This document shows, one piece after another, positions 31,296-60,060 of a stretch of 64,000 nt of DNA (its first letter is position 1; every line of letters starts with the position of its first letter). Under the pieces are notes generated by a model. That model was not told the origin of the DNA and searched no databases. It saw only the letters and a list, made by a program, of their open reading frames with translations. Location of the stretch: assembly GCA_964398365.1 (NCBI GenBank), contig CAYNMC010000038.1, positions 25,727 through 89,726 of the forward strand, given 5' to 3'. This stretch comes from an uncultured Pseudomonadales bacterium. GTDB lineage: Bacteria > Patescibacteriota > Microgenomatia > UBA1400 > CAYNMC01. The translations under genes were made by a program, and so were the position numbers.

Positions 31296-31367
31296 TGGGC
31301 GAGGATGGGATCGAACCATCGACCTTCGTCTTATCAGGACGACGCTCTACCACTGAGCCACTCGCCC
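31296..31367 (-). tRNA. tRNA-Ile(GAU)
   Basis: Minus strand: GGGCGAG TG GCTC AGTGGTA GAGC G TCGTC CTGATAA GACGA AGGTC GATGG TTCGATC CCATC CTCGCCC A. About 200 nt downstream of the 16S 3' end. No encoded CCA. Confidence 0.9.
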
Positions 31368-32011
31368 CTTCCCTGTTAGTTTTCCTTGCCTAAAAATTAC
31401 CCTCTATTGGTAGGGGCTAAAGGATGATATCAATCTGAATAAGTGATAGGAATCCCCGATTTTCTAAGGTGTCGGCGGCACACCCGACTGTGACGATTTA
31501 CAGTCATGTTTTTCCTTTGACTTGCGCCAAAGAGGTAAAAACCCTGTGAGTGGGTAAACCTTTTATCCTTAAGAAAGGAGGTGATCCATCCGCTCCTTCC
31601 AGAACGGATACCTTGTTACGACTTACCGCTGATTACCGAGCTTGCCTTCACCCCGCCTAAAGGGCGGGGCTTCGGGCACTCCCGACTTTCCTCAGTTGAC
31701 GGGCAGTGTGTACAAGGAGCGAGAACGTATTCACCGCGGTCTGCTGACCCGCGATTACTACCAATTCCGCGTTCATGAGGGCGAGTTGCAGCCCTCAATC
31801 CCAACTGAGGGAAGGTTTGATGGGATTAGCTCCGCCTTACGGCTTGGCAACCCATTGTCCTTCCCATTGTAGGATGTGTGTGGCCCTGGGCATAAGCGCC
31901 GTGCTGACTTGACGTCATCCTCTCCTTCCTCCCCGCCAGTTGGCGGAGCAGTTCCCTAAGAACTTCTAACTTAGGGTAAGGGTTGCGCTCGTTACCGCAC
32001 TTAAGCGTACG

Positions 32012-32045
<34 letters not shown>

Positions 32046-32965
32046 GCTGTCCTAGTGTCCTTGCGGAAGCCTCGGTTTCCCGAAGATGTCACTAGGATGT
32101 CAAACCCAGGTAAGGTTCATCGCTTCGTATCGAATTGAACCACATGCTCCACTGGTTGTGCGCTCCCCCGTCAATTCTTTTGAGTTTTAGCCTTGCGGCC
32201 GTAGTTCCCAGGCGGCCTACTTAACGCGTTAGCTTACGTCACCCCCGCGAAAAACGGAGACAACTAGTAGGCATCGTTTACGGCTAAGACTACAGGGGTC
32301 TCTAATCCCTTTTGCTCCCTTAGCTTTCGTTCATCAGCGTCTGAAGGACCTAGGTGCCTGCCTTCGCTCTCGGTGTTCTTCCCAATCTCAACGGATTTCA
32401 CTCCTCCACTGGGAATTCCAGCACCTCCGATCCAACACAAGTTTTTCAGTATCAATCGCCTTTCTCCGATGAAGTCGGAGGCTTTAACGACTGACTTGAA
32501 AAACCGCCTACGAGACTCTTTACGCCCAGTAAATCCGGATAACGCTTGCACCCTACGTCTTACCGCAGCTGCTGGCACGTAGTTAGCGGGTGCTTATTCC
32601 CCCGATGGTCTCCCATCGGGGAAAAGTGGTTTACAACCCGAAGGCCTTCATCCCACACGCGGCGTCGCGGCGTCAGAGTTGCCTCCATTGCGCACGATTC
32701 CCGGTTGCTGCCACCCGTAGGTGTATGGGCCGTGTCTCAGTCCCATTCTGCCCGTATCCCCTCTCAGGGCGGGTACCCGTCGTAGCCTTGGTAGGCCATT
32801 ACCCTACCAACAAGCTGATGGGCCGCAGGCTCATCCCTCGGCGGACAGTTACGTCCTTTTCCCGATTAAATCGGGATTATGCGGTATTACCCCGCCTTTC
32901 GGCGAGCTATTCCCCACCAAGGGGTAGATTCCTACGTGTTACTCAGCCGTTCGCGGCTAGCGCAA

Positions 32966-33389
32966 CTCACAACACTCAACTACCAACTTTCAACTTTTTA
33001 GAAAAACCGCCAAGTTGATTTACAACGCTTTCACAAAGTTCAATTGACTCGTCAAATTCTTTAGAGTTAATCAGCTTTTCACTAAAAGCAACATCTAACG
33101 CGGATGCTGTTTCATTTGCTGAACCCATCGAATTTTCGAGATATCTGTTGAAATCTTTGTCTGAAGTTTTTGCTGAACCTTCTGCTATATTTAAGACTAT
33201 CGATAAAGAACTTCTTCTTATCTGATCTTTTAGATAATAGAAGTCTTTTGGAAATTTGGCAGACAATCTTACTATTTTTCGATGTAGATTCTTTGAGTCC
33301 TTATATACCTTAAAGTTCAAAAAACGGAAACTTATAATCTAATCATAGCAGAAAGTTGTGTGTTGTTTGTTGGAGGCTGAATGTTGTGA
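32966..33389 (-). other. intervening sequence (IVS) inside 16S rRNA helix 6 / V1, with basal stem
   Basis: After GCATGCAAGTGGAGCGAGCGTAGC the rRNA leaves the conserved core. CTCACAACA (33389..33381) pairs with TGTTGTGAG (32974..32966), after which the core resumes GCGAACGGCTGAGTAACACG. A second pairing, CAACTTTC / GAAAGTTG, lies inside. Confidence 0.8.
32976..33320 (-). CDS. four-helix-bundle protein (23S rRNA IVS protein / S23p / Avd-like family) encoded within the 16S IVS
   Basis: 114 aa. KFPKDFYYLKDQIRRSSLSIVLNIAEGSAKTSDKDFNRYLENSMGSANE matches the family core (QlrRAa.Si..NIAEG...s.kef..fl..A.GS..E). Same strand as the rRNA. Confidence 0.8.
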   Translation of the reverse strand: MNFKVYKDSKNLHRKIVRLSAKFPKDFYYLKDQIRRSSLSIVLNIAEGSAKTSDKDFNRYLENSMGSANETASALDVAFSEKLINSKEFDESIELCESVVNQLGGFSKKLKVGS

Positions 33390-33651
33390 GCTACGCTCGC
33401 TCCACTTGCATGCCTAAGGCGCGCCGCCAGCGTTCATCCTGGGCCAGGATCAAACCCTCAAAAATGCTCCCGATTCTGCATCGGGAAACGCTTCCCCTAG
33501 AAAACTTCGAAATTTTCTGTTTTCCGGCTTAAAATTGTCAAGGTGCCTGTGAACTTACCAAAATGGCCACCAGATGGTGGCCTTCCAAATCACACATCTG
33601 GTAATTTTTCTAATCCATATGCTCTCCTTGAATATCTCGGAGGCAGATATC

Positions 33652-57810: not shown

Positions 57811-58878
57811 TTATAGAATAATTTTCCTAACCTCGGCAAATTTTTTGACATATTGTAACTCTGTGGTTGTAATTACTGTCTGGTGGTGTTTGATTACCTT
57901 CATAACCACCTCTCTGTGAGCTTTATCTAATTCTGAAAAAATATCATCTAAAAGAAGTGTGGGTTTGTAACCGGTCTGCCTTTCAATATATTCAAGCTCC
58001 CGCAGTTTGAGCCACAAAACTGCCATTCTCTGCTCGCCCCGGGAACCAAAACGAGAAAGGTCTCTCTCAATTTTGAATTTTGAATTTTGAATTTTGAACT
58101 GAATATCATCTCTGTGGGGACCAACTAGAGTGGTTGCTGCTGCAACCTCTTCTGCCGCGTATTGCTCAAGACGGGAATGCGAAATTGCAGATTTATCATA
58201 AACGAGTGTGAATCTACAATTGTCAAAATTTGGTTCTTGGTTTACAAAATTAATAAATTCTTCCCTTTTGCGACTTATAAAATCTCCATTTTTTATTAAG
58301 AGTTGGTCCCAGAAAATAAGCTGTGAGCGCGATAGACCCTCCTCGCGGATACGATAAAGAAGCCTGTTGCGCTGACGTAGACCTTTTTCGTAAGAAAGGT
58401 TGCTGCGGCGATATTCGCGATCACTTTGAGATAAAACAGCATCGAGAAAACTTCTTCTTAAACTTGGTGATTGGGTCACCAATCCCAAGTCCCATGGCCC
58501 GAAGATAACCGTCTTGAAGCGTCCAGCAAAATCTATAAGTCTTTTATTTACCCCGTTTACCAAAAGTTTTTTGCGAACAAGATGTTTTTTAGGGGAAAGA
58601 TGAGCTTCTCTACCTAAATTCATTTCACCTCTCGTCAATACTACCTCTAATATCTCCTCTGTTTTTGCTTTTACGCGGGCAATTTCAGCATTTTCACTAA
58701 TCATTTCCTCTTCAATCTTGGCTCTAAAACTTTTGCCGCTTGCAACTAAATTTATTGCCTCAAGAATGTTTGTTTTGCCGCTGGCGTTAGGGCCAATTAT
58801 CAAAGTTACTTTTGGTGAAAACTCAATTAGCTTTTCTTTGAAATTTCTAAAGTCTGTAAGTTTGATTTTTTGGATCAT
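57811..58878 (-). CDS. recF: DNA replication/repair protein RecF
   Basis: KLTDFRNF, Walker A GPNASGKTN, GPHRDD, SRGEQR signature and LLLDDIFSELD Walker B. Start set at ATG 58878 (MIQKIKL); the 30 upstream codons of the track ORF look like the tail of a decayed gene. Confidence 0.9.
   Translation of the reverse strand: MIQKIKLTDFRNFKEKLIEFSPKVTLIIGPNASGKTNILEAINLVASGKSFRAKIEEEMISENAEIARVKAKTEEILEVVLTRGEMNLGREAHLSPKKHLVRKKLLVNGVNKRLIDFAGRFKTVIFGPWDLGLVTQSPSLRRSFLDAVLSQSDREYRRSNLSYEKGLRQRNRLLYRIREEGLSRSQLIFWDQLLIKNGDFISRKREEFINFVNQEPNFDNCRFTLVYDKSAISHSRLEQYAAEEVAAATTLVGPHRDDIQFKIQNSKFKIERDLSRFGSRGEQRMAVLWLKLRELEYIERQTGYKPTLLLDDIFSELDKAHREVVMKVIKHHQTVITTTELQYVKKFAEVRKIIL
58069..58098. repeat. 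heptanucleotide tandem repeat (AATTTTG x4 plus 2 nt) inside recF
   Basis: Read directly from the sequence. It encodes FKIQNSKFKI between the GPHRDD and SRGEQR motifs. Confidence 0.9.
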
Positions 58879-59204
58879 AATCTTCCAGAGCACTTTTCCA
58901 TAATTTTCTCGAATATGGCTAACTCTTTGATATTCCTTATTGCTAAGGTAACCGTTTCTGCAAGTCAACCAAAGGCTATTTTCAAAAATCTTCTGAATTC
59001 ATTTTGATTATTTCTTGCATGACCTTTGACAATCTTAAGAGGCACAGACAAAACGGCATATCTTAATTGAGAAGTCAATCCAAAAAGCTCATCTAGGGGA
59101 AATTTATCGGAAAGTTTATAAACACTCCACGCCAGCTTGTCCGCTATTTCCCAAGCGATCAGTTTTTTATAACCTGTTTTGTACAGTATCTTGTCACCTG
59201 TCAC
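58879..59204 (-). pseudogene. decayed four-helix-bundle (23S rRNA IVS protein / Avd-like) gene between mutM and recF
   Basis: YKKLIAWEIADKLAWSVYKLSDKFPLDELFGLTSQLRYAVLSVPLKIVKGHARNNQNEFRRFLKIAFG stops prematurely at 58965. The expected C-terminal segment (GYLSNKEYQRVSHIRENYGKVLWKI) continues in the recF frame. Possible GTG start at 59204. Confidence 0.6.
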
Positions 59205-60060
59205 TTGTCTTTTGTCTCTGACAATTCGGGCAAAAGTAGGTGCCGCGGCCACCCAACATTATTTTTATAAACTTAGCTTTTTTACACCTAGAACAAAACT
59301 TGCCCTCCTTACCATAAGCTAAAAAATAATTTTGATAATTACCCTCACCTCCATCTGGGGTAACAAAAGCCAGCTCACTTGCCCCGCCTCTTTTGATACC
59401 TTCTTTTAAAACTCTAATAATTGAATTGTAAAGAAGTTTTACTTCAGATTCTTTTAGAGAGTTTGCAGGACGAGTGGGATTGATACTTGCAAGCCACAGC
59501 GCATCATTGGCATAGATATTACCCACCCCACCCATCTTGGACTGATCCATAATTACTATTTTTACAGCACTTTTACTTGATTTTAAGATTTTAGAAAAAA
59601 GCTCCAAGGTTAAGCCATTTAGGGGTTCTGGTCCAAGTTTTTTAATAAAATCAATGTCAGTGACACTCTCGGTTTCAACTATCTTAATCCAGCCAAAGCG
59701 GCGAACGTCGTTATAGAAAAGTTTGCCATCGCGATCAAGATGGAATATTAAATGAGTATGGCGGCCACCTAAGCCACCAATAACTTTTTTTGATAGGTCC
59801 GGAGGATCTTTTAAGTTTGGGCCACGATAGATAAACTGGCCGGTAAGTTTAATATGAGCAACAAACGAATAGCTATTATCAAGATCAACTGATAATACTT
59901 TGCCAAAACGGCGGACCTTTTTGACTTTACCTCCTACGAGTTTATTAACATCTCCTGAAACAATTTTTGGAGTGTGAACACTCACTTTCTGGATCTTATG
60001 ACCCCTTAAATATTTATCAAGTTGACCCCTGATTGACTCTACTTCGGGTAGTTCAGGCAT
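59194..60060 (-). CDS. mutM: formamidopyrimidine-DNA glycosylase (Fpg/MutM)
   Basis: MPELPEVE N-terminus (catalytic Pro2/Glu3), H2TH region and C-terminal zinc finger CSRC...CPNCQ. Confidence 0.92.
   Translation of the reverse strand: MPELPEVESIRGQLDKYLRGHKIQKVSVHTPKIVSGDVNKLVGGKVKKVRRFGKVLSVDLDNSYSFVAHIKLTGQFIYRGPNLKDPPDLSKKVIGGLGGRHTHLIFHLDRDGKLFYNDVRRFGWIKIVETESVTDIDFIKKLGPEPLNGLTLELFSKILKSSKSAVKIVIMDQSKMGGVGNIYANDALWLASINPTRPANSLKESEVKLLYNSIIRVLKEGIKRGGASELAFVTPDGGEGNYQNYFLAYGKEGKFCSRCKKAKFIKIMLGGRGTYFCPNCQRQKTSDR

Follow-up and report, generated by a model that had tools for sequence, protein, structure and literature searches.

The window, i.e. the whole stretch of 64,000 nucleotides that was analyzed, carries a 16S rRNA gene on its minus strand. 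This gene has a length of ~1.89 kb, as given in the initial annotation, and would have ~1.47 kb without the insert that is the subject of this report. The insert takes the place of the loop of helix 6 (V1, also called the "spur") and is enclosed by two complementary arms. No other large insertion is present in the 16S gene of the window. The features at the RNA level are:

31574-33465, minus strand: 16S rRNA gene including the insert, ~1.89 kb, ~1.47 kb minus the insert (Rfam SSU_rRNA_bacteria)
32967-33389, minus strand: candidate intervening sequence (IVS) of 423 nt in place of the helix 6 loop (read directly; SSU model)
33369-33397, minus strand: 5' arm of the closing stem, with 33397-33390 being native-like helix 6 and the remainder belonging to the insert (pairs from the MFE fold)
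32959-32987, minus strand: 3' arm of the closing stem, which contains the stop codon of the ORF (pairs from the MFE fold)

The 3' end of the 16S gene (31574) was obtained by alignment of the whole window to the Rfam model SSU_rRNA_bacteria (1271.8 bits). The 5' end suggested by this alignment (33022) is false because the SSU model was forced across the foreign insert, which misplaced the 5' end by ~440 nt. The 5' piece was located by a local SSU covariance-model search with 33370-33480 as the query. In this search, 33465-33370 matches model positions 1-102 (57.4 bits, E 1.8e-16), and the high-posterior part of the match extends from 33465 to ~33398 (model positions 1 to ~68). The gene thus starts at 33465.

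Upon direct reading, the 16S core is left after ...GCATGCAAGTGGAGCGAGCGTAGC (33390) and is re-entered at GTTGCGCTAGCCGCGAACGGCTGAGTAACACG (32966). These are the exit and resume points that had been claimed initially. The covariance model puts the insert between SSU positions ~70 and ~93, which is the tip of helix 6 (V1). The insert thus lies within the rRNA gene in place of the loop of a peripheral hairpin, as expected for an IVS. Its location had been described correctly, and its size (given as ~0.4 kb or ~405 nt) is 423 nt. We confirm that this gene-carrying insert in the 16S gene of a CPR bacterium is real and that all of its parts are found at the positions listed here.

A tRNA-Ile(GAU) gene (31296-31367, minus strand) is the sole gene that follows the 16S gene. 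The 23S gene is encoded on another contig of the same genome bin (G000:C31:11338-14275) and does not contain a large insertion. The rRNA genes of this genome thus appear to be unlinked.

The flanks of the insert are complementary. An outer pairing of TCACAACA (33389-33382) with TGTTGTGA (32974-32967) had been proposed and was borne out. In the MFE fold of 33415-32940, there is a continuous helix of 22 bp (33397-33376 with 32959-32980), which is made up of 8 native-like helix 6 pairs and 14 pairs from the insert. Beyond a 2x2 internal loop, another 5 pairs follow (33373-33369 with 32983-32987). The fold z-score is -7.3, and none of 100 shuffles folds as well. Thus, the insert has the extended double-stranded stem that is expected for an IVS (22+5 bp), and this stem shows covariation in 13 homologues (see below). 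For the inner pairing that had also been proposed (CAACTTTC/GAAAGTTG), the situation is less clear. It is possible, but AAGTTG is repeated in the 3' arm, so that the register is ambiguous and may shift by one repeat.

Both arms are composed of short repeats. With 2 G in 42 nt, the 5' arm is rich in A and C and represents a degenerate heptamer array of the type NNNNCAA, with a period-7 self-match of 0.54 compared to 0.31 in shuffles (p ~0.004). The 3' arm, in contrast, is rich in G and U, with 2 C in 42 nt, and represents a heptamer array of the type TTGNNNN, with a period-7 self-match of 0.66 (p<0.0005). Part of it (32976-32997) was also assigned a period of 7 by TRF. According to the period-7 test and TRF, the ORF of the window is bracketed by inverted arrays of ~7-base repeats. 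The 22-bp stem contains four G.U pairs. Together with the scarcity of G in the 5' arm and of C in the 3' arm, this means that the sense RNA forms a better hairpin than the antisense strand does.

Most of the insert is occupied by an open reading frame on the sense strand. The features at the coding level are:

32976-33338, minus strand: four-helix-bundle ORF (23S_rRNA_IVP / S23p family), stop-to-stop frame of 120 codons that ends with TGA at 32976-32978
33333-33335, minus strand: ATA codon in place of the start codon of the relatives (from the protein alignment, the sequences of the relatives and the DNA of loci L071 and L075)
33318-33320, minus strand: TTG, first conventional in-frame start, 7 codons into the frame (start of database entry P0001)
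33332-33346, minus strand: mini-ORF ATG ATT AGA TTA TAA, five codons, with a stop codon that overlaps the ATA (read from the sequence)

A length of 345 nt had been attributed to the ORF. This is valid only when counting from the TTG at 33320, while the stop-to-stop frame covers 363 of the 423 nt. The core of the ORF (RRSSLSIVLNIAEGS...GSANE) was found in the translated frame, and the proposed membership in the four-helix-bundle family was verified by HMM searches. The matches are to PF05635 (23S_rRNA_IVP; E 1.7e-27; 96.2 bits with a cut-off of 33.8; profile positions 2-105 of 106) and to TIGR02436 (E 2.6e-26; 91.9 bits with a cut-off of 24). The nearest solved relatives of the ORF protein are 2GSC (E 7e-10) and 2RLD, with five chains each in the PDB entry.

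Because the frame is open across 363 nt, only 60 nt of the 423-nt insert are non-ORF RNA. This agrees with the initial estimate (~60 nt) and is too little for a group I or II intron. The insert does not match an intron model or another Rfam family, neither at the gathering score (window) nor at E<=10 (insert alone). These results bear on the possibility that the insert is spliced, with the 16S halves being rejoined through intron self-splicing or a protein-dependent splicing or ligation system. There are precedents for introns: 380 CPR 16S genes were surveyed by Tsurumaki et al. 2024 (J Bacteriol, PMC11270868), and group I or II introns account for many of the other insertions in CPR 16S genes. 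The same survey reports, however, 18 PF05635 ORFs in 16S insertions, 15 of which are without an intron match. With 60 nt of non-ORF RNA and no intron family detected, we consider it very unlikely that the insert of the window is spliced.

The start codon of the ORF is problematic. The N-terminus reads IISFRFL in the window and MSFRFL in close relatives (55-80% identical, ~119 aa). Thirteen aligned relatives start with ATG or GTG at the position where the window has ATA. A usable start codon, as expected for an intact PF05635 gene, is thus missing from the window copy, the frame of which is otherwise open. Database entry P0001 (114 aa), which is an ORF call inside the rRNA gene, begins at the TTG (33320) and reads LNFKVY. 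A start at this codon would remove the conserved N-terminal FRF residues (R5 and F6 are invariant in the alignment). As to the mini-ORF, its equivalents in the two nearest relatives (L071 and L075) end with ATGA and overlap the main start. This arrangement might indicate translational coupling of the mini-ORF and the main ORF.

A search of protein databases with the ORF of the window resulted in 414 homologues at E<=1e-10. One of these (P0005, 80% identical) is from Candidatus Woesebacteria RIFOXYD1_FULL_40_21. On the corresponding contig (locus L071), the insertion is at the identical position in the 16S gene, and its leader and arms are the same as in the window. A scan restricted to one genome per species, with an alignment of the close homologues as the query, provided 30 loci. 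In half of them (15 of 30), the ORF directly follows 16S positions ~60-68, after which 16S sequence is encountered again. The records of the 16S-resident loci are labelled as Shapirobacteria, Liptonbacteria, Sungiibacteriota, Parcubacteria group, Minisyncoccia or as a Saccharibacteria-labelled MAG, and some of the homologue-locus records are labelled "uncultured Gammaproteobacteria". For nine further database proteins, the called N-terminus is translated 16S 5' sequence (e.g., MNAGGVDKACKS... or LAACLRHAS...).

It might be argued that a free-standing four-helix-bundle gene was misjoined into the 16S gene upon assembly, given that metagenome bins are error-prone near rRNA genes and that two 16S genes are found in this bin (see below). 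The same insert, with the same architecture, nucleotide position and matching arms, recurs, however, in at least 16 assemblies, which are independent and come from different studies. In addition, the junctions fall within one continuous covarying helix. Because of the recurrence at the same site, we regard an assembly artefact as practically ruled out.

Covariation was analyzed with 13 homologous inserts, each reduced to its leader, a GAAA linker and its tail. The consensus stem of this alignment has 28 pairs. Among the stem cells, 88.7% are paired, compared to 26-49% after shifting the partner by 1-3 columns. Double-sided changes were encountered in 19 of the 28 pairs, and none of 500 shuffles reached the observed values. 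An AAC/GUU triplet in the stem is (nearly) invariant; its first base pair is unpaired in one of the 13 inserts.

The ORF is conserved as well. Where dS is not saturated, pairs of 16S-resident ORFs show dN/dS values of 0.08-0.15; these values are rough since dS is near saturation. They indicate that the protein is under purifying selection even within an rRNA gene. ORF distances correlate with the distances of the adjoining 16S sequences (Mantel r 0.43, with none of 5000 permutations being as high), and L071 and L075 are nearest to the window in the 16S gene and in the ORF alike. These sequence comparisons fit a mainly vertical descent of the 16S-resident ORFs within clades.

It is less obvious if the copy in the window still codes for a protein. 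It may be a decaying relic, with the cassette RNA still being processed and the ORF being a pseudogene that does not give rise to a protein in this organism. This is suggested by the replacement of ATG by ATA and by the end branch of the window (0.27, compared to 0.11 and 0.18 in two sisters). Other helix-6 copies are also broken: at L076, from a MAG with the label Candidatus Shapirobacteria, an in-frame TAA interrupts the ORF after ...SIVL, and the copy at L080 is devoid of an in-frame ATG. Coding capacity thus seems to have been lost recurrently, with the hairpin being kept. Furthermore, the ORF of the S23p IVS from Coxiella was reported to be untranslated and decaying (PMC4990558). On the other hand, the remaining 119 codons of the window copy are open, every invariant column of the 14-sequence protein alignment is kept, and dN/dS of the window versus its sisters is still 0.13-0.15. 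Also, translation could still be initiated at ATA or ATT, or by re-initiation after the mini-ORF. Overall, we attribute to a decayed ORF a substantial probability that falls somewhat short of an even chance. This estimate is for the ORF alone. A relic is compatible with the main explanation, which is given in the following, and its probability does not have to sum to one with those of the main and the other explanations.

The insert is likely an RNase III-type IVS of the S23p/PF05635 cassette family that resides in the loop of 16S helix 6. We envisage the following series of events. The insert would be transcribed within the pre-16S rRNA. The inverted degenerate heptamer arms, together with the native helix 6 pairs, would form a helix of ~27 bp. 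This helix would be cut by a double-strand-specific RNase, most likely the RNase III of this genome (rnc, G000:C15:27320-27709, PF14622 E 2.1e-44), so that an insert RNA of ~0.4 kb would be set free. Ligation is not expected, and the mature 16S rRNA would thus consist of a 5' piece of ~70 nt and a 3' piece of ~1.39 kb, presumably held together by the remainder of helix 6 and by contacts of the 5' domain. Family-wide, the released RNA or its precursor would serve as the mRNA for the selected four-helix-bundle protein. That the insert is excised, which enzyme cuts it and that the ends are not rejoined is inferred by analogy with the IVSs of 23S rRNA; the fragmentation of the 16S rRNA and the translation of the ORF are inferred likewise. 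For the window copy, either poor translation (from ATA/ATT, by re-initiation after the mini-ORF, or from TTG) or a gene at the onset of decay would be expected because its ATG became ATA. In the genome of the window, the steps that involve the protein may not take place.

Alternatively, the insert might stay in the mature 16S rRNA as a retained expansion segment by which the spur (helix 6) is lengthened considerably. The helix 6 tip of E. coli 16S rRNA tolerates insertions, and it coincides with the eukaryotic expansion segment es1 (PMC2441807). However, a near-perfect helix of 22-27 bp is a standard RNase III substrate, and the rnc gene is present. CPR rRNA insertions have been reported to be removed from transcripts (PMC11270868, citing Brown et al. 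2015). Moreover, purifying selection on the ORF is hard to square with an RNA that is locked in the ribosome. A retained insert is thus unlikely. If the RNase III-type IVS, which we prefer, is cut out without religation, these CPR ribosomes would run on a split 16S rRNA, which has been demonstrated in very few bacteria.

The genome bin of the window (G000) has a size of 1.01 Mb and consists of 39 contigs, with a contamination of 5.9%. The contig of the window is C38. A second, different 16S gene is found at a contig end (G000:C14:60313-60915; locus L038, 413-1016). It is 77% identical to the 16S gene of the window over 475 nt, and it has a short helix 6 without an insert. C14 and C38 cannot be told apart by GC content or tetranucleotide composition. 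Probably, two organisms are mixed in the bin, or one of the contigs is a contaminant. Due to the two 16S genes, the comparison with genomes of the same order, and the link to the rnc gene (contig C15), which could stem from an organism other than that of C38, are less certain.

With this proviso, 60 relatives were searched at the DNA level, and there was no match to the arms or junctions of the insert. The sole match to the DNA of the insert among these relatives was weak and internal to the ORF, on a contig other than that carrying the 16S gene of that genome. PF05635 homologues are encoded in 73 of 286 genomes from the GTDB order of the bin, the best other match being 39% identical, and the 29 best loci from this order are all outside rRNA genes. 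Judged from these comparisons, the near relatives of the insert lie outside the GTDB order of the bin.

In most relatives from the same order, helix 6 is short, the exceptions being G004 and G017. G004 has an insert of ~290 nt at the same helix-6 tip (L037; G004:C2, ~398-712). This insert carries a GIY-YIG ORF (PF01541, E 2.3e-12) and has a closing stem of ~26 bp (z -5.2). G017 has an extended helix-6 hairpin of ~140 nt without an ORF (L008; G017:C35, ~1568-1735; z -7.0), in which CACAGAT-like units are repeated. This hairpin may derive from an armed cassette that lost its ORF. The tip of helix 6 is thus a repeated landing place, in line with the insertions that it tolerates in E. coli (PMC2441807).

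Non-coding IVSs of bacterial 16S genes occupy variable hairpins and do not remain in the rRNA. To our knowledge, those from Helicobacter canis, Campylobacter helveticus and Rickettsiales endosymbionts do not carry a four-helix-bundle ORF. The 16S inserts of Helicobacter canis, Campylobacter helveticus and Rickettsiales endosymbionts are cited as intervening sequences in reference lists. Another known system is the S23p IVS in helix 45 of Coxiella burnetii 23S rRNA (also in Leptospira), which resembles the insert in several aspects. It also has ~0.4 kb, replaces a hairpin loop, has complementary flanks and contains one PF05635-family ORF. It is excised by RNase III and not religated (PMC4990558). 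The two differ in their host, which is helix 45 of 23S rRNA in Coxiella and helix 6 of 16S rRNA in the window. They also differ with respect to the ORF, which is reportedly untranslated and decaying in Coxiella, whereas the CPR helix-6 copies have a dN/dS of ~0.1. The DGR accessory protein Avd has a related small four-helix-bundle fold. In contrast to the gene for Avd, the gene in the window is enclosed in a 16S gene, and it is the only ORF in the IVS.

The PF05635-carrying 16S insertions reported by Tsurumaki et al. share with the insert the organism group (CPR), the host gene (16S), the protein family and the lack of an intron signature. That paper also notes possible RNase III-type IVSs in CPR. 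PF05635 ORFs in CPR 16S insertions are thus of a kind that is already published (PMC11270868). The ORFs are described there as scattered over several insertion sites. Position figures aside, four aspects are undescribed in the accessible text: the conserved helix-6 site, the covarying stem built from heptamer arrays, the purifying selection on the ORF and the kinship with free cassettes (see below). We consider site, stem, selection and kinship to be modest additions and not a new system. The helix-6 copies provide, nevertheless, a clean natural case of a selected protein gene within the small-subunit rRNA precursor. In practical terms, a V1 amplicon from the lineage of the window would be ~0.4 kb too long.

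The other 15 of the 30 loci do not have a blastn match to the 16S or 23S gene of the window genome, and they lack Rfam families at gathering score except for tRNAs. When 14 non-rRNA homologues were examined, similar complementary arms were found, with up to 61 pairs spanning the ORF. In most of the 14, the arms are A/C-rich upstream and G/U-rich downstream. Because close homologues from outside rRNA genes lie between similar complementary arms, the 16S insert represents one version of a family of hairpin-armed cassettes that is not confined to rRNA genes. Common to both is a PF05635 gene that is flanked by complementary arms. They differ in context, as the free cassettes are located between protein or tRNA genes while the window copy is in an rRNA helix loop. 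Unlike in free cassettes, cutting the arms of the insert would also split the host RNA.

Two close homologues with similar arms are located in tRNA clusters, between tRNA genes (L100, 701-1045, from Buchananbacteria; L101, 701-1042, from another Patescibacteria genome). Transcription units of other stable RNAs thus harbour such cassettes as well. When 29 proteins were placed in a tree, 16S-resident and free copies were interleaved, and at least five changes of context are needed. A single change fits none of 200 bootstrap trees. Strongly supported branches alone would, however, allow for a single change, and we therefore do not claim a direction of movement.

It is conceivable, but rather doubtful, that the helix-6 IVS and the free copies constitute one mobile cassette family, consisting of a four-helix-bundle gene and inverted heptamer arms. 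Such a family would move between stable-RNA hairpin loops (16S helix 6, tRNA clusters) and intergenic sites in CPR genomes, and its protein, which is selected even within the 16S gene, would act on the arms of the cassette (e.g., in processing, protection or spread). If true, the orphan S23p family would thereby obtain a function, and its presence in rRNA IVSs would be explained. In any case, the link between rRNA-resident and free hairpin-armed copies is a testable handle on the function of S23p/PF05635.

Additional PF05635 copies are encoded in the bin of the window. One of them (G000:C31:23806-24045; L003) lies between long complementary heptamer arms of the type GTGAGTN (~60 bp by eye). 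Another one (G000:C35:8646-8924; L001) has an internal TAA and is preceded by GTTAG-rich repeats. A known structured RNA was not found around L001, L003 and L005; RNase P RNA and tmRNA are located elsewhere. The window itself contains a decayed PF05635 copy (58965-59252, minus strand), which has an in-frame TGA and in which NIAEG has degenerated to KIVKG. This copy is located between an fpg/mutM-like gene (59194-60060) and a recF-like gene (57811-58968).
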